A stretch of DNA of 64,000 nt from a virus (IMGVR_UViG_3300014205_000002:144265-208264), one strand, 5' to 3'. Numbered from the stretch's first letter, positions 22,508-46,607 are shown. Program-made: numbers and translations. Notes: generated from the sequence alone by a model not told the origin.

Positions 22508-25021
22508 TTACTTGCAGCGCGAGTAGCCGCAGGTCGGGTTGATGCACTTGGCACAGCCCTCGCCGTGGTCGAGACGGCTGCCGCAGTCGGGGCATTCGGG
22601 GGTTTCGCCCTGATCGAGGGCGTGCAGGTTGGCGGCGTGCTGGGCGTTCGGTGCTGGCGGCAGCGGAAGCGGCAGCGCGAGGCCCAGGGCGAAGGTCACG
22701 GCCTCGCGGGGCGCGAGATCGATCGGACCACCGGACCAGGTGAGCGGCGCACGCCGGATCGCCTTGCCGATCGCATCTGGCACCGAGAGCACCTGGTTGT
22801 CGCCGAACCCCGAGGGGTCGGCCCCGCGGATGCCCACCAGGGCATGCGAAATGTCCTCGACGGGCACGCGGTGCTGGAGTGCCAGGCTGATCAGCTTGCC
22901 GATGGCCTCGCCGAACGAGTTCAGTGTGCCGCCGGAGCGCCCGATGTTCGTCACGACCTCGCGCAAGCCCTCCTCGTCGTAGTTGAGGGTGGTGTAGAGC
23001 TTGCCCTCGCCGACCTGCTTGGTCATGGTGAAGCCCGTCAGGACCTCGGGCCTGATCCGTTTGCCCGCCCGCATCTCTGCCATCAGGCTATCGAGACGCG
23101 CCTGGAGTTCGGCGAGTTGGGGCGGCGGGGCGATCGCCGCGGGGGCGGTCACCTGGGTGAGCGAGAGCGGCTGTGCCTCGCGGGAGTTGTTGCGGTACAC
23201 GGTGATGCCCTTGCAGCCCGTCTCGTAGGCCAGGTGGTAGGCTTCCTCGACGTCCGCCTCGGTCGCGCTCTCAGGGAAGTTGATCGTCTTGGAGATGGCC
23301 GAGTCGTTGAAGCGCTGGAAGGCGGCCTGGGTGTGAACGTGCTGGGCCGGGCTGATGTCGTGGGTGGTGACGAAGATGCGCGCGAGGTTGAAGAGGATCT
23401 TCATCTCGCCCGTCGTGAAGAACAGGGCCCTATCAAAGGGGTTGTCCGCCACCAACTCGTTGAGCGAGCCGTGGTAGTGAGTGTCCAGCGCTTCGAAGAC
23501 ATAGGCGATGCGTGCGTCGTCGAAGCCCTTGGCCCGGAGCGCGTCTGCGAACACGCGATCGGCGTCGAACATGTGGGTATCGGCCTGGAAGCGCTTGAAG
23601 GCCAGCGCGAAGACGGGCTCGCAGCCGCCCGAGGTATCGGCGATCATGGAGAGGGTGCCCGTGGGCGCGCAGGTCGTGGTGTTGGAGTTGCGCAGGCCGT
23701 GGATGTCGACTTCGTCGGCGAGCCAGTCGTAGCGGCAATCCTTGTGCTTGCCGGGGCGCGCGTGACGCTCCATCAGCATCTTGCGGAAGATGGCGTTGGA
23801 CTCGGCTTCGTGGCCGATGCGCGCGGGGAAGACGCCACGGGCCTTGCCTAACTCCAGGCTCTTGACCTTCGATTCGTAGTCGATGAAGCTCATGACCTCT
23901 TCGGCGAAGGCCAGGCCCTCGGGGCTACCGTAGGGGATCTGGAGCTTGAACAGCGCCCGGGCGAAGCCCATTACGCCGAGGCCCGTCTTGCGGGTGGCGT
24001 TCGAGACCTCGGCGATCTCAGGGATCGGGTACTTGTTCGCGCTGATCACGTTGTCGAGCATGTGCGCCGAGGTGTGAACGACGCCGCGCAGACGCTCCCA
24101 GTCGAAGAATGTGCAGTCGGGGCCGCCCTGCGGCATGTCCATGACGAACTGCTCCAGGTTGATCGAGCCGAGATTGCAGGATTCATAGGGGATTAGGGGC
24201 TGTTCGCCACAAGGATTGGTGGCCTCATACTTGCCCAACCAGGGCACGGGGCAATACTCGTTCATGCGGTCGATGAACACGATGCCCGGCTCACCCGTGG
24301 TCCAGGCGCGCTTGACGATCTCCTTGAAGACGGGCCGCGCGCGGATTCTGTCGGTATCCTGGCCTGTGCGCGGGTTGATCAGGTCGTAGTTGTTATCATG
24401 AACGACGGCGTCCATAAACCTGTCGGTGATCGCCACGGAGATGTTGAAGTTCGTGAGTTTGGAGAGGTCTTCCTTGTGGCTGATGAAGCTCAGGATGTCC
24501 GGATGATTGACGCGGAGGATGCCCATGTTCGCGCCACGGCGCATGCCGCCCTGCTTGATGCTCTCGGTGGCCGCGTTGAACACGTCCATGAACGAGATCG
24601 GACCCGAGCTCTCGCCCTTGGTGGACTGGACCATATCCTTGGCCGGCCGCAGGCGCGAGAAGGCGAAGCCGGTGCCGCCGCCGGTCTGGTGGATCAGGGC
24701 GGCGTTCTTGATGGTTTCAAAGATGCCCGCGAGGTCGTCGGGTACAGGCAGGACGAAGCAGGCCGAGAGCTGGCCCGTGCGGGTGCCGGCGTTCGCCAGC
24801 GTGGGTGAGTTCGGCAGGAAGTCGCCGTCCCAGAGGAGTTGGAAGAACGCCTCCTCGACGAGCGCCGTCTGCTCGGGCGTCTGGCCATGTTGCAGTTCGA
24901 CGGCTGCCAGTGTGCGCGCGACGCGCCGCATCATCTCGATGGGCAGTTCGATCAGGTTGCCTTGGGCATCCTTTTCAAGGTAGCGCTTCTCCAGTACGGT
25001 GATGCCGTTCTTGCTCAGCAT
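22508..25021 (-). CDS. nrdJ: Class II (adenosylcobalamin-dependent) ribonucleotide reductase
   Basis: PNSPTL, GQLSACFVLP, GGGTG, RRGANMG, TNPCGEQ, CNLGSIN, APTGTLS, SKTIN, KGITVYR. C-terminal TSCPD-like domain and CPDC..C..C. Confidence 0.95.
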   Translation of the reverse strand: MLSKNGITVLEKRYLEKDAQGNLIELPIEMMRRVARTLAAVELQHGQTPEQTALVEEAFFQLLWDGDFLPNSPTLANAGTRTGQLSACFVLPVPDDLAGIFETIKNAALIHQTGGGTGFAFSRLRPAKDMVQSTKGESSGPISFMDVFNAATESIKQGGMRRGANMGILRVNHPDILSFISHKEDLSKLTNFNISVAITDRFMDAVVHDNNYDLINPRTGQDTDRIRARPVFKEIVKRAWTTGEPGIVFIDRMNEYCPVPWLGKYEATNPCGEQPLIPYESCNLGSINLEQFVMDMPQGGPDCTFFDWERLRGVVHTSAHMLDNVISANKYPIPEIAEVSNATRKTGLGVMGFARALFKLQIPYGSPEGLAFAEEVMSFIDYESKVKSLELGKARGVFPARIGHEAESNAIFRKMLMERHARPGKHKDCRYDWLADEVDIHGLRNSNTTTCAPTGTLSMIADTSGGCEPVFALAFKRFQADTHMFDADRVFADALRAKGFDDARIAYVFEALDTHYHGSLNELVADNPFDRALFFTTGEMKILFNLARIFVTTHDISPAQHVHTQAAFQRFNDSAISKTINFPESATEADVEEAYHLAYETGCKGITVYRNNSREAQPLSLTQVTAPAAIAPPPQLAELQARLDSLMAEMRAGKRIRPEVLTGFTMTKQVGEGKLYTTLNYDEEGLREVVTNIGRSGGTLNSFGEAIGKLISLALQHRVPVEDISHALVGIRGADPSGFGDNQVLSVPDAIGKAIRRAPLTWSGGPIDLAPREAVTFALGLALPLPLPPAPNAQHAANLHALDQGETPECPDCGSRLDHGEGCAKCINPTCGYSRCK

Positions 25022-25983: not shown

Positions 25984-27134
25984 GCCGGCACCTGGGCGAA
26001 ATGGGCCTCGATCGCGTCCGGTAGCATCAATGGGTCAAGCACACCCAGATACTGCATGATCAGCGCGGTGGACGAGCTGAGGGCGATCGCCTGCTCCAGC
26101 TGGCGTTGATTGACGAAGCCCTGGCTCCAGGCGACCATGGCCCGGGCGCTGGCCTGCGGCCCGGTGTAGGGATTGGCCTCCTGGGTCAGGCCTGCCACGG
26201 CGGCCTCCGCACCCTGGCGGTGAGCCTGTTCAACGCCCACGACCTGCCGGAGATCCTCGCTGCTCGTGAACAGGCGCTCGCGCACCTTGGCGTAGAGCAC
26301 CCGGTAGCGCGAGAGGCAGCGCATGATTCGCTCGAAGTTGGTGCCGGCCTGTTCAGTCTCGGGCTCTCCCCGCAGCGCGTCGGCGATCAGGGCGTCGCGA
26401 TACGACAAGGCATCCTTCGCCATGCCGGCCTCGGACACGGCGGCGGCCTCGCGGCTGCGGGCGATTGCAAGTTCACCGGTACTCGCGAGGGCCTCAGCGC
26501 GCACCAGCTCCGTGCTGGCCTTGAGCGTCTCGATCGCCTTGGTTAGCTGTTCGCTCTCGGCCAGTAGCTCGCAGACGCGCTGCTCGGCAGACTCCGCGCG
26601 CTCCTCTTGGGTGCGGATCTGGTCGATATACTGCGCCTCAATGGGCGTGGCTCCGCCGGTGCCGTAGGCCAGGAAGTTGTCGAGGAAAGCGTTGTAGCCA
26701 TCGCAGCTGCGGCCATTGAGTGCTTCTTCGACCATTTCCTGGCGGTCAAGTGGGAGGAGTGCTCCGTTGTAGAGGCCGTTGAGCAGGCATTCATAGTGGA
26801 GCTTGCGCAGCACGGGCTTGAGGATGGCGCTGCCCGATAGCTCGGCGCGCAGGAGCTGGTTCTCCTTGGCGAGTTGGCCGTAGCTGAGTTCGTAGTTGCG
26901 TATCGTGTCGAGCGCGCCAGCGAGGTAGCGACCAGCCTCTTCGGAACCGGCCGCGAGCTGCTTAATCAGCGCCGTGAGGTCCTGGCGGGTGAGGTGTTTG
27001 AGGTTCTCTCCCTGGTTCGTGTGGCGCTGCACCAACTCGGGGATGCCGGCGATCGCCGCCTGGACCACCATGAGCGGGCTGGTGAAGTGGCCGTTGGTCA
27101 CAACGACGGGGATGTCGGGGGTAGATTCACTCAT
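25980..27134 (-). CDS. Coiled-coil protein with a C-terminal RMF-like motif
   Basis: AHRQGAEAAVAG...NPY...AWSQGF. Confidence 0.6.
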   Translation of the reverse strand: MSESTPDIPVVVTNGHFTSPLMVVQAAIAGIPELVQRHTNQGENLKHLTRQDLTALIKQLAAGSEEAGRYLAGALDTIRNYELSYGQLAKENQLLRAELSGSAILKPVLRKLHYECLLNGLYNGALLPLDRQEMVEEALNGRSCDGYNAFLDNFLAYGTGGATPIEAQYIDQIRTQEERAESAEQRVCELLAESEQLTKAIETLKASTELVRAEALASTGELAIARSREAAAVSEAGMAKDALSYRDALIADALRGEPETEQAGTNFERIMRCLSRYRVLYAKVRERLFTSSEDLRQVVGVEQAHRQGAEAAVAGLTQEANPYTGPQASARAMVAWSQGFVNQRQLEQAIALSSSTALIMQYLGVLDPLMLPDAIEAHFAQVPA

Positions 27135-27997
27135 GAGGCTTGTAGCTCCTTGCGTTGCTTGCGCAGCATGGACTGGTAGGTGAGCACGGAACTGACGTCC
27201 GCAAAGCCCAGCTGCTGCTTGATGTCGTGGGGGTCCTGATTGGCTTCGAGGAGTTCGATGATGCGGCTCGCGCGCATCACCTGGGGGGTCAACTGGGGCG
27301 TCTGTGCGCCCGCGGCGTTGCGTACGATCAGCCAGACGACATGCCGGCTGATCATGCCGCCCTTCATACCGTAGAACATGAGGTCCTTGCGCGAGGCCGA
27401 CTTCGGGACGGCGCGCACCTGGGCGTAGGCTACATAGGCCTCTTGGGCGATCGCGTCCAGCACCAGGAGGTCGTCGCGCTCCGCACTGACGAACAGCAAG
27501 GAGCCGGACCGAAAGAGGCTCTCGCCGTCGCCGGCGGCGTTGAAGCGCATGGCCTGAATTTCACCGGGCCGTATGCCCAGCCGGAACAACTCCATGATGA
27601 AGCGCCGCGAGGTGCCGAGGTGGTAGCGCGCGCAGGCCTCGGTGATCGCATCAGGGGGGTAGAAGGCGCTGTCCTTGCCGTCTGGACTCGGCCACTCCAC
27701 GTCATGCAGCAGCGCCGTGTCCAGTTGGCCCCGCTCGATGTGGTGGCGCAGGAAGCCGCGCAGGGCGGCCCCCTTGCGTGTGGCGGTGTTCGGCCTGGCC
27801 CGGCGGCGGGTGTGGGTCATGTAAGCCGCCAGAATCTGGCTGGAGAGGTCGCCGAGATCCCGTGCGTCCGGGCAGTGCTCTGCGAGGTACTGAGTGAAGT
27901 CGGCGAGGTCCCCGCTGTAGGCGCTCGTGGTCGCGACCGCCTTGTTCTGCTCGATCAGCTCGTTGACGTAGGCCTGGGTGGACTGAACGATGTTCAC
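27131..27997 (-). CDS. XerC/D-like tyrosine recombinase with a degenerate catalytic pocket
   Basis: TTSAYSGDLADFTQYL, ALRGFLRH, GIRPGE, LTPQVMRAS, IKQQLGFAD, LTY. GTG start overlaps the upstream stop. Confidence 0.8.
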   Translation of the reverse strand: MNIVQSTQAYVNELIEQNKAVATTSAYSGDLADFTQYLAEHCPDARDLGDLSSQILAAYMTHTRRRARPNTATRKGAALRGFLRHHIERGQLDTALLHDVEWPSPDGKDSAFYPPDAITEACARYHLGTSRRFIMELFRLGIRPGEIQAMRFNAAGDGESLFRSGSLLFVSAERDDLLVLDAIAQEAYVAYAQVRAVPKSASRKDLMFYGMKGGMISRHVVWLIVRNAAGAQTPQLTPQVMRASRIIELLEANQDPHDIKQQLGFADVSSVLTYQSMLRKQRKELQAS

Positions 27998-28347
27998 AGC
28001 TTTTTTCCTCGCTCCTGGCCGATCTTGACGAGCACGTCGAAGCGGCGGCAAGCGTCCTCGAACATGGGCCCGACGACGGCGCATTCGGTGTCCTGCATGT
28101 ACAGGTTTGCGATCATGGCCTTCTGGCCCGTGGTGACGCCGTCACCGACCCAGAGCGCCCATTCCTGGTTGAAGTTGTCCTTGGTCATGGCCCTGAGCGC
28201 GTCCTCGGAGAACGACTCGATGTCGCGATCCTCTTCGGTCTCGATCGCCGCCGGGATGTCCCAGATGGGGAAGGGAACAAGAGAGCCCTTCTTCTCCTTC
28301 TTCTCCGCCGGCGCTTTCGGCTTACTGGCGACGGATCGTCTTGCCAT
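27994..28347 (-). CDS. Hypothetical protein
   Basis: 117 aa, coupled. Confidence 0.7.
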   Translation of the reverse strand: MARRSVASKPKAPAEKKEKKGSLVPFPIWDIPAAIETEEDRDIESFSEDALRAMTKDNFNQEWALWVGDGVTTGQKAMIANLYMQDTECAVVGPMFEDACRRFDVLVKIGQERGKKL

Positions 28348-28586
28348 CAGGATTGGCCCTTCTCAAAAGCGCGCTTACTGGAGCACATGCGACTGAACGC
28401 CAGCTCGATCGCGTTCTCTGGTGAGACGCTGCCCGCGCTGCCGCTGCGCCCGAGGTCATCGGCGATCATCACCATCACGCCACCCTTGGGCATGGTCGTG
28501 AGCGTGAACGCGACGATGGCGAAGGGGTAGTTGGCGGTCTTCTGAGCCAGGTGAGCGAAGTAGCGGTTGACCGACATCCACACCAC
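28347..28586 (-). CDS. Hypothetical protein
   Basis: 79 aa, coupled. Confidence 0.55.
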   Translation of the reverse strand: MVWMSVNRYFAHLAQKTANYPFAIVAFTLTTMPKGGVMVMIADDLGRSGSAGSVSPENAIELAFSRMCSSKRAFEKGQS

Positions 28587-28609
28587 CTTACGAAGATTAG
28601 TCGGGCCGC

Positions 28610-28834
28610 CTAGCGGCTACCCAGGACCCGCAGGACTCGACGCTCGGTTTGGCGATCCAGCGTTCCCGCAAAGAGCCGCCGCATCTCGTCTTCCATTCGC
28701 GCCGCTGTGGATTGTTGGTCCGACCAACGGGGGGATTCAAGTATCCCATCTACGGGGGAGAAAGGCAACGTTACGTCTACCGAAACATTGGTCGGACCAT
28801 CGTCAGAGCCGACGAAAAACGCATCACCTTTCAC
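28610..28834 (-). CDS. Small hypothetical protein
   Basis: GTG start, SD GGAGGAG. Confidence 0.55.
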   Translation of the reverse strand: MKGDAFFVGSDDGPTNVSVDVTLPFSPVDGILESPRWSDQQSTAARMEDEMRRLFAGTLDRQTERRVLRVLGSR

Positions 28835-29109
28835 TGAAACTCCTCCGTAAGATCGGGCTGGTCAAAGCTCTCGGCGGGGCGATCGCTGGGGGTGTCCGCG
28901 AGTATGACGTAGAGCGGGTCCTGGGCCCAGTTGTTTATCTCGGCTTCGGTGAAGTCATTGAGGACATCAGGCCTGTGTCCGGTAGTGAAGAGGATCGTAG
29001 CGGGCTCGACCTTGATCACTGGTGGGTTGACCACCGCCATCTCCGCAGGATTGAGGACGGTCTTGTTCGGGCCCTGCCTGCCCATGAGTTGGCGCATGAA
29101 GTCAGTCAT
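28831..29109 (-). CDS. Small protein ending SDRPAESFDQPDLTEEFQ
   Basis: Start MTDFMR overlaps the upstream stop. Carries the shared C-terminal tag. Confidence 0.65.
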   Translation of the reverse strand: MTDFMRQLMGRQGPNKTVLNPAEMAVVNPPVIKVEPATILFTTGHRPDVLNDFTEAEINNWAQDPLYVILADTPSDRPAESFDQPDLTEEFQ

Positions 29110-29323
29110 CGGCGAGATCCGGATAGGCGGCAACGAGATGGCGAACGTGCGGCCGCCGCGGCGGCTCGACCGCGGCCATGCGTACCGAGAGGTCTTGAAC
29201 GGCCTCGACGACGTTTGTGCCGGCTGGGTAGTATCCGGTGCTGTCGTCGATCTGGAGCCTGTCGGGGTTCAAGGGGTTCTCCGTTACCCATACGGTCTCA
29301 GGGCGACCATTGTCCCCGAGCAT
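29102..29323 (-). CDS. Small protein ending YPDLADD
   Basis: TAATG coupling with the upstream ORF. Confidence 0.6.
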   Translation of the reverse strand: MLGDNGRPETVWVTENPLNPDRLQIDDSTGYYPAGTNVVEAVQDLSVRMAAVEPPRRPHVRHLVAAYPDLADD

Positions 29324-29499
29324 TACAGGAACGTCTCGGTCATGTCGGGGGCGGCGAAGCTGTCGGCGGGGCGATCGCTGGGCCCAGGTCCAACCACGAA
29401 GCGCTGGGAGATGCGGGTGACGGGCATGTCGAGATGCATATTGATGGTGACCTTCTCGACCTGGTCGTCCTGGGCGTCGGTCCAGCTGAATTCAGCCAC
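29323..29499 (-). CDS. 58-aa ORF not in the ORF track, ending SDRPADSFAAPDMTETFL
   Basis: GTG start with SD GAGGAG. Hand-translated MAEFSWTDAQDDQVEKVTINMHLDMPVTRISQRFVVG... Confidence 0.65.
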   Translation of the reverse strand: MAEFSWTDAQDDQVEKVTINMHLDMPVTRISQRFVVGPGPSDRPADSFAAPDMTETFL

Positions 29500-29656
29500 A
29501 AGTCATCTCCTCGGTCAGGTCGGGGGTGGTGAAGCTCGCGGGCGGGCGCGGGCTTTTGGGAGGGAACAGCCGGTCCATCCCTTGCAGGTCATTCATCAAG
29601 TCTTCCGCGGCCTTGATCTGAGCGGACGTGACGGGGCGTTCGCGATTCGGGGTCAT
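29492..29656 (-). CDS. 54-aa protein ending RPPASFTTPDLTEEMTCG
   Basis: TGATG coupling, SD AAGGAG. Confidence 0.65.
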   Translation of the reverse strand: MTPNRERPVTSAQIKAAEDLMNDLQGMDRLFPPKSPRPPASFTTPDLTEEMTCG

Positions 29657-30198
29657 CAACGGGGCGCTCCTTGAGGCTGAGGGGCTTCTGAATCCGCGAA
29701 AGCTTGCGCCATGACCAGGCACCAGGGTACCTCCTGCATGTGGTCGGTGGCGGCCTTGATCAGCGCGGCACCGACGGCATGGTTCATGGCGTAGGGGCTG
29801 AACCCATTGATGACGGCACGCTTGCCGGCCAGGGTGAGCTTGGCATGACAGGTCGGCCCGCTCTGTGCGGTGTGGATGTCGGCGACCAGCTCCGCCATGC
29901 CCGCCTCGCGCACGACGTCCCAGAAGCCTTCGGAACAGGCTGCGTCGTACTCGATGGCCGGCATCTGGGCCTTGCACCACTTGGCGATCGCGTCGACCCG
30001 TACATCATAGACGACTGACCAGCCTTCTGGCCGCTTGATCTCGTTGATGACGCGCCCATGCAGACCTTTCATCACCTCGGCGTGCATCAGGTCGCGGGCC
30101 CGCACCCGCTTCGAGCGGCCCGTCGCGACGAGCTGCACGTAGCCGTGGGCCTTCACGCTCGCGACCACCGCCATCCGGAGGAGATCGGCGGGCGTCAT
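29656..30198 (-). CDS. Hypothetical protein
   Basis: 180 aa, coupled. Confidence 0.65.
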   Translation of the reverse strand: MTPADLLRMAVVASVKAHGYVQLVATGRSKRVRARDLMHAEVMKGLHGRVINEIKRPEGWSVVYDVRVDAIAKWCKAQMPAIEYDAACSEGFWDVVREAGMAELVADIHTAQSGPTCHAKLTLAGKRAVINGFSPYAMNHAVGAALIKAATDHMQEVPWCLVMAQAFADSEAPQPQGAPR

Positions 30199-30593
30199 AT
30201 CACCATCACCGTGAGGCCTGCCCAGGCGGGCGGGGGCTCGGCGCGGAAGCTCTCGGTCAGGTCGGGCACACTCTGGGCGATCGCCTGCGTGATCGACGCA
30301 CCCTTGGCGGCCGGTTGGCCGATCTTCGCGCCCTGGGCGAGCAGCGTCTCGCCCGTCATCGGCGGCGTCGTGAAGGACACGGCATGGCCGAGATCCTTCC
30401 AGTCCACGTCCTTGCGCAGGATCAGGCCATTGGCGAAGACCATCAGGGGGGTGAACTCAGGCGGGAGCGCGAATACGGACGTCTTGTCGTCACCCTCGCC
30501 GAGCGGAACCGGGCCGAACTGATCCAGCTTCAAGCGATTCAGTGGGATTGAGTCTTCGGCGATGCGCGTCCCCAGCACCATGGGCGTGATCAT
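30195..30593 (-). CDS. Small protein with a tail-protein-like beta domain and a PDLTESF motif
   Basis: VFANGLILRKDVDWKDLGHAVSFTTPPMTGETL and VPDLTESF. Confidence 0.6.
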   Translation of the reverse strand: MITPMVLGTRIAEDSIPLNRLKLDQFGPVPLGEGDDKTSVFALPPEFTPLMVFANGLILRKDVDWKDLGHAVSFTTPPMTGETLLAQGAKIGQPAAKGASITQAIAQSVPDLTESFRAEPPPAWAGLTVMVI

Positions 30594-31294
30594 ATCGCGA
30601 GCCCATGCTTGAGCGGGAACTGCTGGGCCACACCGAGACAGTGATAGCAGAGGTAGCTCGCCGGGTCCTCATAGCTGAGGACTTGTGCGAGGTGAGGCTT
30701 ACAGAGGGCGTCGCCGGCCTTGAGCTGGCGCTTGCGGGCGTCGCCGACCCACCTTACATTCGTGTCGACCGTAAGGTGGCCGACGCCGACCCTGGTGACT
30801 GCGAGGCTTACGCCGACAGGCAGAGCCGGCACAAGGTCGCGCAGCTTCTCCTTGCCTGCGAAGTCTTTGAGGCGATTCATCATCGCCTGGGTGTGCAGGG
30901 TGACGGCCCGTTGGGTGTCGAGGTAGCGAATGTGGGCCTCGGCGTAGGCCAAAAGCGTGGGGTAAGGCTTGGGGGCGTCGGTGGTTTTTCCGTTCGCGTA
31001 GAAGTAGCTGTGGGGGTTCTTGACGGCATCGTGAACGCCGAGCCAGTGTGCCTTCGCCTGGTCGTATGAGAGATTGTTCAGCATACTGCGAAAGCCGTTG
31101 GTCTTGGGTTTCGGCAGGCTATTAGCACGCTTGAGATAGACACCAAGCGTCTTGCCGCTGGCGTCGCAGTGGCTAGCGCTCGCGTAGCCGGTCTGCACGA
31201 GGACCTCCCCAGGACCGAATGAGCGCTTGGGGATCGCTTCGACCCAGGTAGGCGAGCTTGAGGGCGCAGAGCTGGCGAGTGACGTGGTTGGCAT
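30590..31294 (-). CDS. Hypothetical protein
   Basis: 234 aa, SD GAGGAGG, C-terminal LC..CYHC. Confidence 0.65.
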   Translation of the reverse strand: MPTTSLASSAPSSSPTWVEAIPKRSFGPGEVLVQTGYASASHCDASGKTLGVYLKRANSLPKPKTNGFRSMLNNLSYDQAKAHWLGVHDAVKNPHSYFYANGKTTDAPKPYPTLLAYAEAHIRYLDTQRAVTLHTQAMMNRLKDFAGKEKLRDLVPALPVGVSLAVTRVGVGHLTVDTNVRWVGDARKRQLKAGDALCKPHLAQVLSYEDPASYLCYHCLGVAQQFPLKHGLAI

Positions 31295-31637
31295 GGCAGC
31301 GGCCCTCCTCGGACCAATTGATCAGACTGCGTTTCACCCAAAGGTCAATGGCGTTGTGAAGCAGGTTGGACATAGCACGCAGCGTGTGGACCGCGACACT
31401 GTCGGCGATCGGGATGTCACCGCGCTTGAGGCCAGTTCGGATGGGTACGTCGGCCGGGCAGAACACGTCGTAGCTGATGGTGATCGACCGATCTTTGGCC
31501 GGCGGCTTATCTAGCGTGACGCTCCCGCTTTTGGGATCGATCATGAGGAGATTGAAGTGGTAGCCATCCCAGGTGTGGGCCCAGTCGCCGGCGTACCACA
31601 GCAGCGTCTTGCCGTCGGGGGCGAGTCCGATGCTCAC
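31173..31637 (-). CDS. Hypothetical protein with a tail-protein-like segment
   Basis: IDPKSGSVTLDKPPAKDRSITISY. Confidence 0.55.
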   Translation of the reverse strand: MSIGLAPDGKTLLWYAGDWAHTWDGYHFNLLMIDPKSGSVTLDKPPAKDRSITISYDVFCPADVPIRTGLKRGDIPIADSVAVHTLRAMSNLLHNAIDLWVKRSLINWSEEGRCHANHVTRQLCALKLAYLGRSDPQALIRSWGGPRADRLRER

Positions 31638-32084
31638 CTAGCTGTCTCCATCGAGCAGGAAGTGGGCGTCGGGCTCGACGTAGCCGTTCCAGTCGAAGTA
31701 GCACAGGCCCGCAATCATCTGGTTCTGCTGCTGCTGGGTGATGGTCTCCTGGCCGTGGTGAGCCAGGAAGCGAAACATGTGGACCATTAAGGGGACGGGG
31801 ATGCCGTGCGAGAGGGGGCCGTGATTGAGGCCGTCCTGGGGCTGCTGGGGCTTGAACGCCTGGGTCGGCTCCTCGGACGGGCCGGCTTTAATGGACATGG
31901 GTGGCTCCTTGGGGGTGAGGACCTGCTCAAGGCTAAGCTCGTTCGCGCGCTCGGCCCAGAGGCGGGAGATCCGGTTGTTGGGTTCGTCGAATGCGGCCTT
32001 GGCTGCAACCTGTTGATCCCGGCAGCCGTCGATCGCGTCCATCGTGGCCTGGGGGACGCCGAGCGCGATGCGCCGGCGCTTCAT
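31638..32084 (-). CDS. Hypothetical protein (may have an internal start at MSIKAG)
   Basis: Coupled ORF with an internal AAGGAG-ATG. Confidence 0.55.
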   Translation of the reverse strand: MKRRRIALGVPQATMDAIDGCRDQQVAAKAAFDEPNNRISRLWAERANELSLEQVLTPKEPPMSIKAGPSEEPTQAFKPQQPQDGLNHGPLSHGIPVPLMVHMFRFLAHHGQETITQQQQNQMIAGLCYFDWNGYVEPDAHFLLDGDS

Positions 32085-32260
32085 GCGAAGCGACCGAAGA
32101 CTGCTCGCCGCTGGTATTCAAGGGTGGCGGCGCTGGAGAACACGGCCCCGCCCTCGTTGATCAGTATCTCGGCGGGGATACTGGCCGCCTGCAACACCCG
32201 GCGATTCACGGCCTCGATCTCGCCTTCCATACCGCCCTGGCTTTCACTCATGAACAGCAT
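32081..32260 (-). CDS. 59-aa protein resembling a portal-protein segment
   Basis: TGATG coupling. EAVNRRVLQAASIPAEILINEGGAVFSSAATL. Confidence 0.5.
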   Translation of the reverse strand: MLFMSESQGGMEGEIEAVNRRVLQAASIPAEILINEGGAVFSSAATLEYQRRAVFGRFA

Positions 32261-32589
32261 CAGGCCTTGGGCTCCGCGTTCTTGAGTTTGTCGATCTTCC
32301 GTTGGGTCGCCTGCGTCTGGCGCACGAGAGCGTCGCGCCGGCCGGCCAGATGCAGCAGCAGCTCGCTCTTGGCGCGCTCGAACGTCGAGAAGCACTCGGC
32401 GACGTGAATCTCGTTGCCGCGGCCGGTCTCGGCCCTGACCCACTGTGTTCCGCTGCCGAGCATGCCGCGCCAGGGCTTCACGCCCGTGACGGGAACGACG
32501 CCGGTGCGGCCCTTGTTCCAGGCGAAGCAGCTGACAGGGACCTGGTTTGACTGCTGATATTCGGGGTTCCAGTTGTGCTGGGTATTCAT
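32260..32589 (-). CDS. Hypothetical protein
   Basis: 109 aa, SD GGAGG. Confidence 0.65.
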   Translation of the reverse strand: MNTQHNWNPEYQQSNQVPVSCFAWNKGRTGVVPVTGVKPWRGMLGSGTQWVRAETGRGNEIHVAECFSTFERAKSELLLHLAGRRDALVRQTQATQRKIDKLKNAEPKA

Positions 32590-32951
32590 TTCAATCCAAG
32601 CCTCCGATTGATGACGCTCGCGAGCGGCAGGTAGTAGTCGATGTGTTCGGTGGGCTCGCCTGTGCCCTTGCGCAGGCGCGGGACCGCCACGAGGTAGCGC
32701 GGCGTGGCTGACCGCAGCAGTCCCTTGATCTTACTCGCGGGCACGCATGCCGATCTGGCGTGCTCGCCATGGGGGTCGTAGACGGGTTTGCCCGCGTGTT
32801 TGGCGATCGCCTCCTGGGCGCTGGCGTGGCTGGGGATGAACGCGAGGATGGTTCCGCTTTTTGAACGCGTACAGCCGCCCGCCTGGCTCGACCACAGGGC
32901 CGCAACTCCAGGTGTAGCCCTGTTGTACTTGGCGTCGTTGTCGATTCTCAT
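32586..32951 (-). CDS. Hypothetical protein
   Basis: 121 aa, SD GAGGAGG. Confidence 0.65.
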   Translation of the reverse strand: MRIDNDAKYNRATPGVAALWSSQAGGCTRSKSGTILAFIPSHASAQEAIAKHAGKPVYDPHGEHARSACVPASKIKGLLRSATPRYLVAVPRLRKGTGEPTEHIDYYLPLASVINRRLGLK

Positions 32952-32970: not shown

Positions 32971-33222
32971 TTAATTGGTCAGCTTCTCGACACAGGCGAT
33001 GACGTCGTCGACGCTGTTGATCTTCTCGGCTTCATCATCGGACATCTCAATGTCGAATTCGTCTTCGATCGCCATCACCAGTTCCACTTGATCCAATGAG
33101 TCCGCCCCGAGATCTTCGTCGAACTTGGCCTCGCGGGTCACGACGTCCTCATGGACACCGAGTCGCTCTGTGACAATAAACCGGATGCGGTTGAAGGTGG
33201 CGGTCTGGTTGATGGCGTCCAT
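32971..33222 (-). CDS. acpP: Acyl carrier protein
   Basis: [40 protein letters not shown], with the phosphopantetheine-accepting Ser intact. Confidence 0.95.
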
Positions 33223-33552: not shown

Positions 33553-34377
33553 TCAGGCATTGGTCACCCAGGGGTTCTCGCCATTGGGCCCTGCGGGCAG
33601 GGAGAGATTGGCGGGGAGGCCGACGGTGTGGAATTCGTGCGGCCGCCATTCGTGGCCGCAGCCCTTGACGTGGTGCGGGCTGTGCGGGCTGCTCTGATCC
33701 TTGTCGAAGTAGGTGTAGTCCACGCAGCGGTGGGTTTTGTGCGGTATGCAGGCCCATTCTCCGGTGTCGACGTGGCGCATCCCGCAGCCGGGGCAGAACA
33801 GATGGTCGGCGATCGGCCTTGCGTGGCTGACCAACTCCCGCCAGTTGGCGGGGATGATTGGCACCTCGTCGTCGCACCACCAGGCCCCGACGCGGAAGAC
33901 CGCGAGCACGCTGTTGATGTCGTCCGCGAGGTCGCGCACCCACTTCGGCAGGTCGACCTCGGTCCAGCCCTCGGTGCAGATGTCGGGCATGTTTTCCGTC
34001 ATCTCCGCGGTGATGTGCTTGAGCAGGGGCTTGAGGTAGTCCCCGTCGAGGCGATCGCGATCGTCGTCGGGCAACTCCTGCTCGATCATGCCCAGCAGTC
34101 CCTCGGAGTTGAAGGGCAATTCGGAGTCGGCGGGGACGCCTTCCTCAAAGGGGATGAAATCCTGAATGGTGTCACCGAGGTGGCTCGCGGTCACCGAGGC
34201 GGCGCGGAAGCGGGCGATCCACGGCTCCTGGCTGTCTGGCTCAATCTCGGCGATCGCGCAACTTTCCAGGAAGGTCTGGAGGTCGCTGGAGAACTCACTG
34301 CCGCGCCGGAGGGCGATCATCTCGCCCTCTTTCCACGCGACGCGGGGGGCCTCAGCCCAGGTCGGCTCGTCCGACAC
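33553..34377 (-). CDS. Hypothetical protein with a C-terminal Cys/His Zn-binding domain
   Basis: GTG start coupled to the upstream stop. CPGCGMRHVD..HKTHRC..CGHEW. Confidence 0.65.
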   Translation of the reverse strand: MSDEPTWAEAPRVAWKEGEMIALRRGSEFSSDLQTFLESCAIAEIEPDSQEPWIARFRAASVTASHLGDTIQDFIPFEEGVPADSELPFNSEGLLGMIEQELPDDDRDRLDGDYLKPLLKHITAEMTENMPDICTEGWTEVDLPKWVRDLADDINSVLAVFRVGAWWCDDEVPIIPANWRELVSHARPIADHLFCPGCGMRHVDTGEWACIPHKTHRCVDYTYFDKDQSSPHSPHHVKGCGHEWRPHEFHTVGLPANLSLPAGPNGENPWVTNA

Positions 34378-35081
34378 TAGACCAGCTCCGCGTCGAGTTC
34401 GCACGCGGCCGGAAGCGGAGCAGCGGTCAGGCGACCAGGTGCCCATGAGCCAGCGGCGATCGCCTCACGATCGGCGAGAGTGGGCAGCTGCACCTGGCAC
34501 TCGGGGACCAGGCGCAGGATCTCTTCGCGGGTGGTCGCCGTATTGATGACGGTGCGCTTTTCGGTCATCTCCAGGTTGTAGGCGTCTGTGGCTGCCTTCT
34601 CCGCAGCCTCGAACTGGCGGTTATAGGCCTTGATTGGCTGGTTGCGATCGCGCTTGACGTGGTTGACGACGTCTTCGGAGGCGGCAGTGCCGTCGCTGCC
34701 GCTGTGGTTGATCATCAGGGTGCCCGAGCTGTGGACAGCCATCGGTGCGGCCTGGTAGCCATAGGTCTTGGCGACGGACTGAGCGAGTGCGAGGACAGCA
34801 TCGAGGGCAATCTTGTACTCGGGCGTCAACGCAATCTCCGCCTGGATGTCCTTGAGAACCTCCGAGGTCTGGAGCAACTTCTGGCACTGGGAGACCGGCT
34901 CTGGGCGCTTACGCAACCGGAACAACTCCATCATCTGGGCGCGCTGGGCCTGGGTCAGCCGGCCCTCCTTCATGAGCTTGAGCTCGGCCTTACGCAGGTC
35001 GATCTCAGCCAGGCGAATGCGGGTCTCGTCGCTGGGCTGGGCGACGGCGAGGGCGGTGGAGGTCTTCTTCGGGGTGGCCAT
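34377..35081 (-). CDS. Helical hypothetical protein
   Basis: 234 aa, SD GAGG. Confidence 0.7.
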   Translation of the reverse strand: MATPKKTSTALAVAQPSDETRIRLAEIDLRKAELKLMKEGRLTQAQRAQMMELFRLRKRPEPVSQCQKLLQTSEVLKDIQAEIALTPEYKIALDAVLALAQSVAKTYGYQAAPMAVHSSGTLMINHSGSDGTAASEDVVNHVKRDRNQPIKAYNRQFEAAEKAATDAYNLEMTEKRTVINTATTREEILRLVPECQVQLPTLADREAIAAGSWAPGRLTAAPLPAACELDAELV

Positions 35082-35106
35082 CGGGTACCTCTGCGGCGGG
35101 TGCCGC

Positions 35107-35138
35107 TGACAGAATGAGGGGGAGCGTGTGGCGATCGC
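35107..35138 (-). promoter_or_regulatory. Bipartite motif GCGATCGC-N14-CATTCTGTCA, copy 1
   Basis: Intergenic, upstream of the 35081 start. Same layout at 36769 and 38331. Confidence 0.65.
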
Positions 35139-35346
35139 GGGTTAGGTGCCGGGGATGCGCAGTTGCTGACCGGCAACCGTGACAACAATGGGGGTGCGGG
35201 ACTGCAAGTTCGCGAACAGGGCCTCGAACTCGGGAGTTCCTCGCCTGGCCTGGATGTCGATGGAGAACTCCATCACCTCGTCGGGCAGTGGTCTGTCGTC
35301 GCGATCGCTCCATGAGGCGCGAAAGACGAGAGGAGCCTGGGCGTCC

Positions 35347-35847
35347 TCAGGCCATCACCATGCGGGCCGAGGTGTACTTCTTATAGAGCGGGTGGTTGGG
35401 CTGGCCGGTCTTGGAGAGCCCATCAAGCGAGTGCAGGAGGTGCTCGCTCAGGAGTTTGCGCACGGCCTTGTCACGATTGAGGAGCTTGCCGTGGTTGCCC
35501 CAGGCAGCGATCAGGAGCTGACTGTCGTTGGCGGCCTTGAGGATGGCGGCGTTGTTGCGGGGGCCAACGCAGTCGATCTCGTAGGCATTGTCTTTGAGGA
35601 CGGCGGGGCTTGTCTCGCGGTAGGCGAAGAGGTTCGCGACGGTGATGCCGCCGTAGCCCCATTTGTCCGCGAAACCCATGCACTTGCGAATGGTGGCGTC
35701 GTCGACCTCGGCGTCAGCGGTCGATGGGTTGAGCATAATGAAGCCGACGAGACCGGCTTCCGGCTTCCAGATACGAGTCAGGGCGTAGCGATACAACCCA
35801 GACTCGCAGAGGTCGGCGGTCTTTGTGATGACGGTGTCCTTTTCCAA
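35347..35847 (-). CDS. DUF1643-family protein
   Basis: YRYALTRIW, FIMLNPSTAD..DDATIRKC, NLFAYRET, IAAWG, PNHPLY. Confidence 0.88.
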   Translation of the reverse strand: MEKDTVITKTADLCESGLYRYALTRIWKPEAGLVGFIMLNPSTADAEVDDATIRKCMGFADKWGYGGITVANLFAYRETSPAVLKDNAYEIDCVGPRNNAAILKAANDSQLLIAAWGNHGKLLNRDKAVRKLLSEHLLHSLDGLSKTGQPNHPLYKKYTSARMVMA

Positions 35848-35852
35848 GGTGG

Positions 35853-36494
35853 CTAGTACCTTTCTCTCTCGGCTGTGAAGCCGCCGTTCCCGCAGTTAAA
35901 GCAGAGCGTGCCTTCGACCTGGACCTTGCAGTAGTGCATGACGTTGCACTCTGAGCAGCGTCGCCATTCGGTCCCAGGCTTTGGCCCAGGCTCTCCAGGC
36001 AGGCGATCGCGGATGGGCTTCATCGGGTAGGTGGGCGGGAACGGCGGTGCTACAGGAAAAACGTAGGGGACCTTCTCCACCACGAACTCTTCGGGGGCAA
36101 GGAGCGCGGGGCGATCACCCCGAGCGTTGCGCCAGATTAGCTCATGGAGGACTGCGTCCACATCGTCGGGCATGCGCGCCTCCATGTGCTTGAACACGAC
36201 GTCAGCTACGGCCACCTTTCCGGCGATATCAGTGGGCAAGATCGGCTGAGGTGGCGGTATCTGGGGTGGTGGAGGTGCTTGGCGCTGGGTGAGCAGAGCC
36301 CGCATCTCGTCGACGGTGACACCCAGGCCCAGTACGGTCTTGGCGGTCTTGGCGTGAGCGACCTGCTCGCGCCGCAGGGCTTCGGTGAGCGTGGCGATCG
36401 CCAACTCGGCCGTGGCTACGTCCCCAGCGAGTTGGGCTGCACGGCGCTGCGACTGGACCGCACGCCGATCCCATTGCACGCTGAGTGTAGACAT
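35853..36494 (-). CDS. Hypothetical protein, coiled coil plus C-terminal Zn ribbon
   Basis: CSEC...CFNCG. Confidence 0.65.
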   Translation of the reverse strand: MSTLSVQWDRRAVQSQRRAAQLAGDVATAELAIATLTEALRREQVAHAKTAKTVLGLGVTVDEMRALLTQRQAPPPPQIPPPQPILPTDIAGKVAVADVVFKHMEARMPDDVDAVLHELIWRNARGDRPALLAPEEFVVEKVPYVFPVAPPFPPTYPMKPIRDRLPGEPGPKPGTEWRRCSECNVMHYCKVQVEGTLCFNCGNGGFTAERERY

Positions 36495-36754
36495 TACGCT
36501 TTGACCTCCGACGCGCTGAACTCGATGAAGTTCTCGACGAACTCCGGCCCCATTACGATGGCCTTGTTCGCCAGGGCGGAGACGATGTCCAGTTGGAGCA
36601 AGGCGGCATCGCGGTAGTGACCGATGGGTGTGCTCTCGACGATGGTGTCGTAGAGCTTCTTGACCTGGGCGCGAACCGCGGTGATCGCAGCGACATCAGC
36701 TTGCGTCGGCGCTTGGTAGTCATGAGGGTGGCGGCCGGCGTAGGATTGGGTCAT
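36494..36754 (-). CDS. Acb2/Tad1-like helical-hairpin protein (candidate nucleotide-signal sponge)
   Basis: HDYQAPTQAD..ITAVRAQVKKLYDTIVESTP..RDAALLQLDIVSALANKAIV. SD GAGGAG. Confidence 0.55.
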   Translation of the reverse strand: MTQSYAGRHPHDYQAPTQADVAAITAVRAQVKKLYDTIVESTPIGHYRDAALLQLDIVSALANKAIVMGPEFVENFIEFSASEVKA

Positions 36755-37165: not shown

Positions 37166-38305
37166 CTAGTAGCCTTCGTGTTCGTGGATGGTGTAGTACT
37201 TCGTCGCGAGCATGGCCGGACCAGGCTCAAGGACCACGTCTTCATCGGGGTCGTCCTTGAGGATTGAGTCCCGCTCAAGCTCGGCTGAGGCCTTGCTTGG
37301 GCAGGTCATTGGCGAACTCTGCCGAGGGCCCACTTTGTAGGTTTGGAGCGTGGTGTTGCCGCATTCGCTGTGGAGCGCGCCGCCCGCGCCGACGCCCGTC
37401 CGAACGACCCAGCAGCCGGTGCGAATTGGCACCATTAGATTGCAGTGGAGGCAGCGGATTCCCTCCAAGCGCCCATGGCCGAAGACCGAGTAGCCAACAC
37501 CCTCGTCGGTCTCGGCCGCACGACTGAGCGCCTTGCTATGAAGGTTGGCAGCAGCGGCATCGAGCCCGTACTGCTCGTGTGGCACGGGTGCCTCGACGCT
37601 GTATGAGTCGCCCTTGGCATAGTCGATACCGATCACGCTCTCGGCGTTGAGGGCGATCGCGTCGATCTTCTCGGCACCAGGCAGGACGAAGCAGGCTGAC
37701 AGCTGTCCAGTGGGCTTGCGCCTGGGCAGGAGGCGATCGTCCACGCCGTAGAGGGTGAGCAATGCGAGGTCGCCGCCGGCGTGGTAGGTGACCTCGACCT
37801 GGGGGCCGCCCTCGACCTCGTGCTCGGCGTCGAGTATCTCGATGCCCTGGGTCTTCATGAGGGTGACCAGACGCTTGGCCTGTCGAACCATTCCCGCAGG
37901 GTCGATGCCGATGTGAATGAAGCTCTCACTGGAACGCGCGCCCGCTTCAATCTCAACGGGGACGAAGCCAGCTCCGGTGAGCAGCTGCCAAGTTCTGAGG
38001 ATATTGGCAGGCACTTCGTCGTGGGTGATGGGCTCCGCGAGAACGATGGCGCAGTCTTCCTCGTCGGTGCCCTCGAAGTCGAGCGCGTAGCACTCGTCGG
38101 CGATCGCGATGACCGCCTCCGCGCGCGAGTTGATCTTGCTGATGCGATCGTTGGTGATGTGGCAGTAGACCTTGCCCACTTCCTGAATGGCCGTGTGGTA
38201 GTCGAACAGCTCGCGCATCACCTTGTCGGGGTCGAGTCGGCCCGTCGCCGGGTCTTCCACGAGGGGCTTCCAGAAGCTGGCGTAATTCTTCTCGTAGTCT
38301 TGCAA
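37166..38305 (-). CDS. Mosaic hypothetical protein containing an RNR active-site peptide
   Basis: TTG start, SD AAGGAG. Internal TGQLSACFVLP. Confidence 0.7.
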   Translation of the reverse strand: MQDYEKNYASFWKPLVEDPATGRLDPDKVMRELFDYHTAIQEVGKVYCHITNDRISKINSRAEAVIAIADECYALDFEGTDEEDCAIVLAEPITHDEVPANILRTWQLLTGAGFVPVEIEAGARSSESFIHIGIDPAGMVRQAKRLVTLMKTQGIEILDAEHEVEGGPQVEVTYHAGGDLALLTLYGVDDRLLPRRKPTGQLSACFVLPGAEKIDAIALNAESVIGIDYAKGDSYSVEAPVPHEQYGLDAAAANLHSKALSRAAETDEGVGYSVFGHGRLEGIRCLHCNLMVPIRTGCWVVRTGVGAGGALHSECGNTTLQTYKVGPRQSSPMTCPSKASAELERDSILKDDPDEDVVLEPGPAMLATKYYTIHEHEGY

Positions 38306-45068: not shown

Positions 45069-45309
45069 CTCCTTCTCGCACCAGGCCTCCCTCGCCATAG
45101 CTGTAGGCCTCTCCGCGATTGCCAGCATGGTTGCACCACCACCGCCGCAGAGTTTCCGTGAGACCCAGGGCTATAGCCGCCCAAGCTATGGTCGCGGGCA
45201 CAGCGGATCCAAGAAGGGCATCAACGTCGAGTGGCGTCGCCATAAGAATCGCCTCGCCAGGGCCGCCCGCAAGATCAATCGTCGCATCAAGCGCGGGATG
45301 CGGGCCTAG
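45061..45309 (+). CDS. Small basic protein
   Basis: TTG start, SD GGAGG, Arg/Lys-rich tail. Confidence 0.55.
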   Translation: MRNSFSHQASLAIAVGLSAIASMVAPPPPQSFRETQGYSRPSYGRGHSGSKKGINVEWRRHKNRLARAARKINRRIKRGMRA

Positions 45310-45537
45310 ATGAAGAAGGGCCCCCAGAGCCTCTGCGACCTTGGCCCCTGGTTGGCAAAGGCGCTGACGTTCAAGCGGGGGCCTGGCTTCAAGTCGATCG
45401 GATTCGGCTGGTCGGTCGAGCGAGGAGCTTGGAAATGCCGTATCATCTACGGACAGCAAGCGTATGAGGCTGAGGATGTCAAGCTCACCTCTGCGCTGAC
45501 CAAGGCCCTGGACGCCTTATTGAAACGACCTCTGTAA
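45310..45537 (+). CDS. Hypothetical protein
   Basis: Abuts the upstream stop. Confidence 0.55.
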   Translation: MKKGPQSLCDLGPWLAKALTFKRGPGFKSIGFGWSVERGAWKCRIIYGQQAYEAEDVKLTSALTKALDALLKRPL

Positions 45538-45563
45538 CCCCCTGAGTATGAAAGGAATTCATC

Positions 45564-45959
45564 ATGCCCGATCCTGAAAACGCCCCCGCGCCCGATGTCG
45601 AAACCAAGTCGTTGGGCGACACCCTGACCGAAGCTGGTGAGGCGATCGTCGAAGCGATCGTCGAGGCGGTCGAGGCGGTCACCGATGCTGTAGACGAAGC
45701 CTTCGGCAGTGGCAGCACGACGCAGCCAGCGCCCATCAAGGAGGGCGACCTCGTCAACTACTCGCTCGACTTGGACAGCCCCTACGCCGGCCAGGTGCGC
45801 GGCGCGATCGTGGTCAAGGTCTGGAATGCGACCTGCCTGAACCTGCGGGTATTCGCCGACGGCACCAACGACTATCCGCCCAATGTGTCCGACTGGAAGA
45901 CGTCGATCGTCGAGGGTGCACCTGGTGCTCCGCGGACCTGGCACCGCAAGGGCGTATAG
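45564..45959 (+). CDS. Hypothetical protein with an SH3-like C-terminal domain
   Basis: EGDLVNY..AIVVKVW..LNLRVFADG..W. SD AAGGA. Confidence 0.65.
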   Translation: MPDPENAPAPDVETKSLGDTLTEAGEAIVEAIVEAVEAVTDAVDEAFGSGSTTQPAPIKEGDLVNYSLDLDSPYAGQVRGAIVVKVWNATCLNLRVFADGTNDYPPNVSDWKTSIVEGAPGAPRTWHRKGV

Positions 45960-45962
45960 GTT

Positions 45963-46229
45963 ATGCCCAAGAAGCCTGGCCCCGAGAAGGGCGATCCACG
46001 CATGGTTGAGGCTGGGAAAAAGGGCGGCGCGATCATGCGCGAGCGTGGCCCTGAGTTCTTCCGCGAGATCGGCAAGAAAGGCGGCCAGGCGACAAAGGAC
46101 AAGCATGGGCCGGACTTCTTCTCCAAGATTGGCAAGAAGGGCGGACAGTCCATGAAGGCGGCTCGCGGCTCAGAGTTCTTTGCGGACATCGGCCGCAAGG
46201 GCGGGGCCACCGAGCGCAAGAAGTCGTGA
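45963..46229 (+). CDS. KGG-repeat stress-induced protein (GsiB/YciG-like)
   Basis: Four ~20-aa repeats of the form G.EFF.EIGKKGG. Confidence 0.88.
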   Translation: MPKKPGPEKGDPRMVEAGKKGGAIMRERGPEFFREIGKKGGQATKDKHGPDFFSKIGKKGGQSMKAARGSEFFADIGRKGGATERKKS

Positions 46230-46606: not shown

Positions 46607-46607
46607 G

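Follow-up and report, generated by a model that had tools for sequence, protein, structure and literature searches.

The small-gene block

A block of small genes was examined on the minus strand of a metagenome-derived virus genome (IMGVR_UViG_3300014205_000002), in which five neighbouring genes, designated g92, g73, g58, g54 and g132, encode proteins sharing a proline-rich C-terminal tail. The window, meaning the whole 64,000-nt stretch of DNA analysed (genome coordinates 144265–208264), is the last 64 kb of the 208,264-bp record, which has direct terminal repeats, and positions below are those of the window unless stated to be genome positions. The phage is myovirus-like with a GC content of ~64%, and was recovered from a landfill metagenome, with the identical sequence also present when one landfill-metagenome run was assembled independently. 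A search of sequencing runs returned one DNA run with the phage (landfill metagenome, probably its source) and listed no RNA runs containing it. The genes for the large terminase, which shares at most 27% identity with those of GenBank phages, the major head protein, the tail sheath and a baseplate wedge protein are located at 45–81 kb in the genome, the terminase gene spanning 45198–46994, and the block studied here (genome 172.9–176.5 kb) is more than 100 kb away from the head and tail genes. Other genes in the same leftward block encode ribonucleotide reductase (RNR), thymidylate synthase, a DNA methyltransferase and an SbcC-like protein.

Between an acyl-carrier-protein gene and position 28831, a coupled run of 12 small minus-strand genes (28.8–33.0 kb) encodes proteins of 121, 109, 59, 148, 154, 202, 132, 180, 54, 58, 73 and 92 amino acids (aa), in that order towards 28831. 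The stop and start codons of neighbouring genes overlap (ATGA, TGATG, TAATG and GTGGCTGA), and the same set of 12 genes was called by an independent gene caller on the second assembly. The G+C content at third codon positions (GC3) of the small genes is 0.76–0.88, and a codon-usage log-odds test gave a positive in-frame score for all 12. No small open reading frame (ORF) had a significant match to any known function in Pfam or PHROGs. The block is best explained as a lineage-specific accessory operon of small genes that runs leftward with the nucleotide-metabolism genes.

Five adjacent genes share a C-terminal tag

The tagged genes are g92 (28831–29109; 92 aa), the ATG of which overlaps the g73 stop codon (ATGA), g73 (29102–29323; 73 aa), g58 (29323–29499; 58 aa), g54 (29492–29656; 54 aa) and g132 (30195–30593; 132 aa), all on the minus strand, and an untagged ORFan, g180 (29656–30198, minus strand), lies within the cluster. 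In all five the tail closes with P-D-[LM]-[TA]-acidic, and it is built from a proline-rich linker, P-S/P-x-R-P-x-x-S-F-x-x, followed by P-D-[LM]-[TA]-[ED]-[EDTS]-[FM]. The C-termini of g92 (PSDRPAESFDQPDLTEEFQ; 28834–28890), g58 (PSDRPADSFAAPDMTETFL; 29326–29382; E 9e-5 to the g92 tail) and g54 (SPRPPASFTTPDLTEEMTCG; 29495–29557) read P/S-x-R-P-x-x-S-F-x-x-P-D-[LM]-T-E-[ET]-[FM], and among the last 19 positions 9 do not vary across three copies. The g73 tag is degenerate (PPRRPHVRHLVAAYPDLADD; 29105–29167; C-terminus YPDLADD) but is found by a hidden Markov model (HMM) of the tail with an E value of 6.5e-8. The tag is at the C-terminus in these four proteins, whereas in g132 the core PDLTESF (30246–30266) is 16 residues ahead of the C-terminus within a disordered tail. 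What follows the tag core varies (FQ, FL, MTCG, none, or a further 16 aa).

In the six reading frames of the 208-kb genome PD[LM]TE occurs four times, compared with 0.09 occurrences expected in coding sequence, and all four sites are in-frame and inside this 1.7-kb cluster, with a relaxed motif bringing in g73. The tail-only HMM retrieved the five ORFs (E 2e-13 to 6.5e-8), with no other ORF below an E value of 0.07. Outside the tails, permissive BLASTP and the tail comparison revealed no similarity among the heads of the tagged proteins. Hence, the same short peptide ends otherwise unrelated proteins of one phage, and this tag is unique to the cluster.

A 58-nt direct repeat is found at the 3' ends of three of the tagged genes. 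However, the codons used for the conserved tail residues vary from copy to copy (L as CTT, CTG or CTC; T as ACG or ACC; D as GAT or GAC; F as TTT or TTC; P as CCC or CCG), and the tail is retained in g92, which has no gene following it. Because of the latter, the GAGGAG sequence in the g92 tail is not needed as a ribosome-binding site, and the two observations together indicate that the tail is conserved as a peptide, not just as DNA, and hence that selection acts on the peptide.

Relatives of the tagged proteins were sought in several collections. When 5.8 billion proteins were searched by word index, using g92 or a profile of the five tails as query, only the phage's own proteins were returned, the single database record for g92 being its own. 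A scan of JGI metagenome contigs with the tail alignment gave 109 pattern matches but no relatives, and the one match to the pattern S-F-x-x-P-D-L-T-E-E in IMG/VR DNA, in a non-coding frame opposite glycosyltransferase genes, was set aside as chance. Related loci were not found in IMG/VR using g180 or the nearby recombinase as query, megablast of the region against GenBank phages gave no match, and a literature search with the tag string returned nothing relevant. In the nearest relative as judged by its terminase (IMGVR_UViG_3300035703_000034; 56% identity), RNR is present, whereas the tag motif, g132 and the small-gene block are absent.

The octamer GCGATCGC, which occurs in two of the tails, is also the top palindromic 8-mer genome-wide (120 occurrences versus 7.2 expected, 16.6-fold), and GGCGATCGCC (43 versus 0.7 expected) and GATC (1998 versus 691) are likewise in excess. 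This combination is the HIP1 signature known from cyanobacteria, though the sample here is a landfill metagenome. Separately, an exact copy of the RNR peptide TGQLSACFVLP (24746–24778) is found in a 379-aa protein (37166–38305) that is unrelated in other respects, which makes it a second short peptide common to unrelated proteins in this genome.

The head of g132 is a tail-fibre-type beta-sandwich

A first-pass annotation of the region, made from the sequence alone, had proposed that several of the small ORFs are isolated fragments of sheath, tail and portal proteins, possibly forming an array of decoys. All of the peptides it quoted are present in the sequence, on the minus strand. One of them, VFANGLIL..DVDW..VSFTTPP.TG in g132, was said to resemble a tail beta-domain. 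In an exhaustive phmmer search of 1.84 billion representatives with g132, 46 proteins were found at E<=1e-3 (best 1.3e-12), and in every one of them residues ~25–92 of g132 match a ~65-aa domain that is tandemly repeated three to six times per protein, with the consensus E.P.G.IDG.NT.F.L..P...SL.V..NGLLQ..G.DYT.SG.TITF..AP..GD.L.A.Y. The top matches also carry Phage-tail_3 with Rcc01698_C, Mtd_N, Ig_GpJ_C, collagen repeats, Phage_T7_tail, DUF2460 or DUF4183. Against Pfam curated thresholds g132 itself matches no family, and of 70 repeats homologous to it only 6–14 have matches, all of them weak, to DUF4183, CBM_X2, DUF2460 or Phage_T7_tail.

An HMM of the repeat also detected the domain in three proteins encoded by this phage, of 344 aa (genome 35498–36529; E 4e-9), 560 aa (genome 66680–68359; 1.5e-6) and 388 aa (genome 34331–35494; 6.6e-6), and hhalign of the g132-type domain against the phage's own large proteins gave an E value of 6e-4. 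The genes for the 388- and 344-aa proteins (34331–36529) are on the minus strand and that for the 560-aa protein is on the plus strand; none of the three is recognised by Pfam or PHROGs, and they are probably tail-fibre or baseplate-associated proteins.

The AlphaFold2 model of g132 (70 sequences) has an eight-stranded sandwich at residues 23–91, with a predicted local distance difference test (pLDDT) score >94 for residues 30–90, and no secondary structure in residues 93–132 (pLDDT 53–78). VIA Z scores of 9.5 to 8.0 (root mean square deviation (rmsd) 1.6–2.4 Å over 64–69 residues) were obtained with proteins of phage B2, the T5/DT57C neck, the N-terminal domains of CBA120 TSP4 and the R4C baseplate, and 7.4 with the N-terminal domain of the T7 gp17 tail fibre; virion proteins fill nearly all of the top 50 rows of the structural alignment. 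Among 21 BFVD matches at E<=1e-3 most were fibres, tailspikes and depolymerases, together with a few free-standing phage proteins of 90–157 aa. Foldseek matches of g132 in the PDB were all above 1e-3, and phmmer searches of the PDB with g132, g92 and g154 gave chance matches only. As the homology, HMM, fold and BFVD evidence all agree, the first-pass annotation was right about g132, and its modelled head (residues 23–92; 30318–30527) is confirmed to be a single free beta-sandwich of the type that anchors tail fibres and tailspikes, followed by the disordered tagged tail.

Segments of g92 and g59 with a possible resemblance to the portal protein

The portal protein of the phage is encoded by a 698-aa ORF (genome 70250–72343, minus strand) that is unannotated by Pfam and PHROGs. 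Its identity was established from an Atlas feature score of 0.98, template modelling (TM) scores of 0.5–0.7 to portal clusters and an AlphaFold model (pLDDT 80.5) for which the 50 best Foldseek matches are all portals, with E values of 1e-8 to those of T4 and lambda. The 120 homologues found (28–82% identity), several of them on contigs of 130–204 kb, define a clade of uncultured large phages.

The peptide NDFTEAEINNWAQDPLYVILAD in g92 had been taken for a tail-sheath segment. Compared with the sheath of this phage (genome 59427–61481; PHROG 279) g92 gave an E value of 24, and its best match in the genome was instead a 20-residue segment (8 identical, 14 similar) of the portal ORF (BLASTP E 0.059 genome-wide). 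Residues 52–75 of g92 (DFTEAEINNWAQDPLYVILADTPS; 28885–28956) resemble portal residues 349–372, which comprise the end of a helix (344–360) and the loop DPLYIMLSPIP, near-invariant in the closest clade. The canonical order of portal elements and the secondary structure of the model place this segment in the putative clip. When g92 residues 52–75 were aligned with a 65-sequence portal profile, hhalign gave a score of 31.9 (E 4e-4). The highest score among 316 null comparisons, made with 240 shuffles and with 76 real small ORFs encoded elsewhere in the genome, was 22.6. At the nucleotide level, g92 and the portal gene are 53% identical overall and match at 17 of 21 positions in the DPLY[VI][IM]L core. 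The odds that this similarity is real appear about even, and the suggestion that the g92 head reproduces the conserved clip helix-loop of this phage's portal is tentative.

The second candidate is g59 (32081–32260, minus strand), a 59-aa ORFan in which residues 12–43 (32132–32227) weakly resemble portal residues 387–416, predicted to form a stem helix and the tunnel loop. The first-pass annotation had likened the g59 peptide RVLQAASIPAEILINEGGAVFSSA to a portal helix, and it does align to this part of the portal (hhalign score 19.0, E 0.03). However, 2 of 90 shuffles and 1 of 76 real small ORFs scored as high (p ~0.02), and the HMMER E value was 23. The match is weak, although it had been predicted beforehand.

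Other proposed resemblances

The remaining resemblances to virion proteins did not hold up. The domain found in g132 was not detected by the repeat HMM in g154 or in other small ORFs, and IDPKSGSVTLDKPPAKDRSITISY in g154, which had been described as a further tail beta-domain, gave an hmmsearch E value of 9.2, an hhalign probability of 0.4% and, for DUF2460, an E value of 0.28. The segment of g58 likened to a tail sheath matched nothing above chance in the genome. The proposed fibre repeat TNVVEAVQDL in g73 had a best genome match with p 0.7 and none in Pfam or PHROGs. Permissive BLASTP (word size 2) of the small ORFs against all six-frame ORFs yielded no sheath match at E<=10. A metagenome search with the sheath as query found none, and no sheath profile was built. 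Taken together, the seven look-alikes resolved into one that is solid, one that is moderate but is to the portal and not the sheath, one that is weak, three that are unsupported and one that is not a gene. The view that small genes far from the structural module bear pieces of virion proteins was therefore borne out firmly by g132 and tentatively by g92 and g59, but not by the sheath claims, the fibre repeat or g154, the failure of which makes the description of the locus as an array of fragments an overstatement.

A possible regulatory region downstream of g92

The look-alike that is not a gene lies in the 253-nt spacer (28578–28830, minus strand) between g92 and the next gene (28347–28577; 76 aa). 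The peptide SDDGPTNVSVDVTLPFSP, proposed as a C-terminal piece of a tail sheath, comes from a 74-aa ORF (28610–28834) that was not called as a gene, has a GC3 of 0.60 compared with 0.76–0.88 in its neighbours, and has a coding score of -0.29, with no frame positive. This ORF holds two of the six exact copies of the palindrome TGGTCNGACCA in the window. With up to one mismatch allowed there are 18 copies in the window, compared with 2.15 expected (~8-fold excess), many of them 20–40 nt upstream of start codons. Because of the low GC3, the negative coding score, the lack of a called gene and the palindromes, SDDGPTNVSVDVTLPFSP is best read as a translated, apparently regulatory spacer.

The two exact palindromes in the spacer, at 28716–28726 (downstream copy) and at 28789–28799 (upstream copy, the translation of which gives the DGPTN of the first-pass annotation), are 73 bp apart and flank a promoter-like element, TTGCCT-17 nt-GATACT (28768–28740, minus strand; 8 of 12 matches), which was read directly from the sequence and is below the promoter-scan threshold. 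The arrangement looks like an operator-promoter-operator unit that would serve the downstream genes for the 76-aa protein, a 117-aa protein, a recombinase and RNR.

Other genes in and near the block

The only significant family match in the block is that of g121 (32586–32951, minus strand) to phrog_11941 (function unknown; E 1e-5, residues 18–51). Sub-threshold PHROG matches were seen for g54 (phrog_29345, E 0.03) and g180 (phrog_6144, E 0.07), both to families of unknown function, and the ESM Atlas model of g180 was poor and gave no usable match. The ORFans g148 (31638–32084), g154 (31173–31637; containing IDPKSGSVTLDKPPAKDRSITISY) and g202 (30590–31198) are also on the minus strand. The start called for g202, which overlaps the end of g154, is GTG (31198), with an alternative ATG at 31294, making the overlap either 26 nt or 122 nt. 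The coding signal changes frame near 31270, which may reflect the longer overlap or a frameshifted fusion of g154 and g202. Three candidate assignments were rejected: g202/g234 as an integrase arm-binding type (ESM Atlas 0.86, under the trust level), a relationship of g234 with an SNF2-like protein (a gapped match of 30 bits) and one of g154 with a 291-aa protein, the last two being unconvincing.

Directly upstream of the small genes is the acyl-carrier-protein gene (32971–33222, minus strand; 83 aa; PP-binding E 8e-12), and no partner enzymes were recognised nearby. On the other side, between the small-gene block and the RNR gene, is a gene for a XerC/D-type tyrosine recombinase (27131–28084, minus strand), called from Phage_integrase and SAM-like N-terminal domains that are both just above threshold; the phage looks lytic.

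Discussion

The five adjacent genes constitute a family defined by the endings of their products and not by their bodies. The tail may be a short linear tag for docking, through which different small heads, of which some are virion-like, reach one common partner. The chances that this is the correct reading seem evenly balanced. The tag would dock on a partner in the virion-assembly or packaging machinery rather than in the host, we infer, and an assembly-related partner is weakly suggested by the resemblance of one, perhaps two, of the heads to a virion docking surface.

Docking tails are known from other phages. The tails of T4 gp43, gp33 and gp55 bind the gp45 clamp, and the acidic tails of T7 gp2.5 and gp4, which end in F, bind T7 DNA polymerase. 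As in those cases, unrelated proteins of one phage here carry a similar short acidic and hydrophobic end on a flexible linker. In T4 and T7 such ends dock on one known hub. The carriers here, however, are five tiny tandem ORFans and not replication proteins, and their motif, S-F-x-x-P-D-L-T-E-E-F, does not look like the T4 or T7 tails. Short peptides that send proteins to a shell are also known, in the form of the cargo-loading peptides of encapsulins and of the sequence that targets T4 internal proteins to the capsid, and they share with the present case a short peptide on a flexible linker attached to different small proteins. The T4 signal is N-terminal and cleaved, whereas the tag is C-terminal, and the encapsulin peptides differ from it in sequence.

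The fold predicted for g132 residues 23–92 is that of the anchor sandwich of T7 gp17, CBA120 TSP4 and R4C (Z 7.4–9.5; rmsd 1.6–2.5 Å; 62–69 residues), and its sequence pattern is shared with tandem repeats of tail proteins, the related Pfam families being Phage_T7_tail, DUF2460 and DUF4183 (F-ENA). In contrast to fibre and tailspike anchors, g132 has just one such domain, to which no fibre, spike or repeat is joined; its gene lies outside the structural modules, and it carries the tag. The gene block as a whole recalls the hyperplastic regions of T4 and the host-takeover module of SPO1, which are clusters of small, fast-evolving early genes, in being a dense same-strand set of coupled small ORFans that is absent from the nearest relative; to our knowledge, neither a common C-terminal tag nor virion-like pieces have been described for those clusters. 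Sensors of structural proteins are a more distant comparison. Avs1–3 detect terminase, and the phage inhibitor DSAD1 acts against DSR2, but only the theme is in common, in that the portal is a known trigger and two of the ORFs here have portal-like stretches. We know of no phage inhibitor of such sensors that is a fragment of the trigger.

Several findings weigh against a common docking tag on partly virion-like heads. The tag is known from one genome only, with no relatives of the tagged proteins in the 5.8 billion proteins, IMG/VR or the JGI metagenome contigs, and no tag-binding partner was identified in this analysis. The tails of g92 and g58 begin with the same 18 nt, within which lies the over-represented octamer GCGATCGC, so part of the likeness of the tails could stem from recent gene conversion or a DNA-level repeat, and at one junction (g54 to g58) the ACC-GAG-GAG of the tail also provides the ribosome-binding site for the next gene. 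In addition, the pairing of g92 with the portal was picked post hoc, HMMER gave it an E value of 3.7, and the BLAST shuffle p value of 0.013 fails correction for 12 queries.

One alternative explanation, which we regard as unlikely, is that the genes are ordinary fast-evolving accessory ORFans, with the tagged members being decayed tandem paralogues or having gene-converted ends and no docking role, g132 merely carrying a common Ig-like domain and the resemblances to the portal being due to chance. The tandem position of the genes, the 18-nt identity between two tails, the 58-nt repeat family and the failure of protein and metagenome searches to find homologues are all consistent with it, as are the occurrence of the g132 beta-sandwich in pilins and spore appendages and the lack of HMMER significance for g92 or g59 against the portal. 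However, decay does not readily account for bodies with no detectable similarity alongside tails in which nearly half of the positions are invariant and the conserved residues are encoded by synonymous codons, and the hhalign score of g92 is far outside the null comparisons. An element acting at the level of DNA or RNA, with the peptide as a by-product, is improbable. A translational-coupling cassette or a recombination hotspot that shuffles small genes would fit with repeats exactly at gene 3' ends, GAGGAG 6–8 nt before the next start in two cases, the 16.6-fold over-represented octamer inside two tails and a XerC/D-like recombinase gene 1 kb away, but third positions vary at conserved residues, g92 keeps its tail with no gene to couple, the g132 motif is 16 codons before the stop, and the g73 tail retains P-D-L-acidic with quite different nucleotides. 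That the tail is a C-terminal degron or timing signal, read by a protease or adaptor so that the proteins act briefly, would be a special case of one partner reading the tag, and matches its C-terminal position after an unstructured linker and the hydrophobic last residue. We consider this very improbable, given that the endings after the core differ, which is unusual as C-terminal degrons depend on the last residues, and that no protease is encoded nearby among recognised families. A precursor of a ribosomally synthesised and post-translationally modified peptide, with the tail as a conserved follower peptide, was also considered and was dropped as no modifying enzyme was detected nearby.

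The first-pass annotation favoured a role for early-made virion-protein fragments as decoys that occupy sensors of structural proteins, such as Avs, CapRel or DSR2, or as dominant-negative blockers of competitor assembly. In support of this are the free-standing domain of g132, of the type that anchors tail fibres and tailspikes, the resemblance of g92 and g59 to two nearby portal segments (349–372 and 387–416), and the location of the genes beside nucleotide-metabolism genes and away from the structural modules; moreover, portal monomers trigger Avs4 (bioRxiv 10.1101/2025.11.14.688446). Nevertheless, four of the seven claimed resemblances fail, every sheath claim included, the portal-like stretches of 24–32 residues are far short of the fold bound by a pattern-recognition sensor, and the beta-sandwich, being a generic module, is not among the known triggers, making this role doubtful at best. 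We know of no precedent for fragment decoys.

The docking-tag reading can be extended, speculatively and with little likelihood, to a kit of assembly-interface mimics made up of the tagged proteins and perhaps g59. The heads would copy the fibre anchor sandwich (g132), the clip helix-loop (g92) and a stem/tunnel segment (g59), and the one C-terminal tag would deliver the tagged members to a single partner. Such proteins would time or block packaging or tail attachment, of the phage itself or of a rival, or mask portal-type patterns from the sensors of the host.

Large phages devote much of their genomes to tiny genes of unknown role, and the shared tail offers practical access to five of them together, since the partner could be named from one pull-down with the tag. 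Should the virion-like heads not be mimics, the locus still shows how easily short peptide look-alikes can mislead, one of the seven being a translated DNA palindrome. If they are true mimics, they would give a phage a new means of regulating or sabotaging assembly, or of escaping notice by structural-protein sensors.

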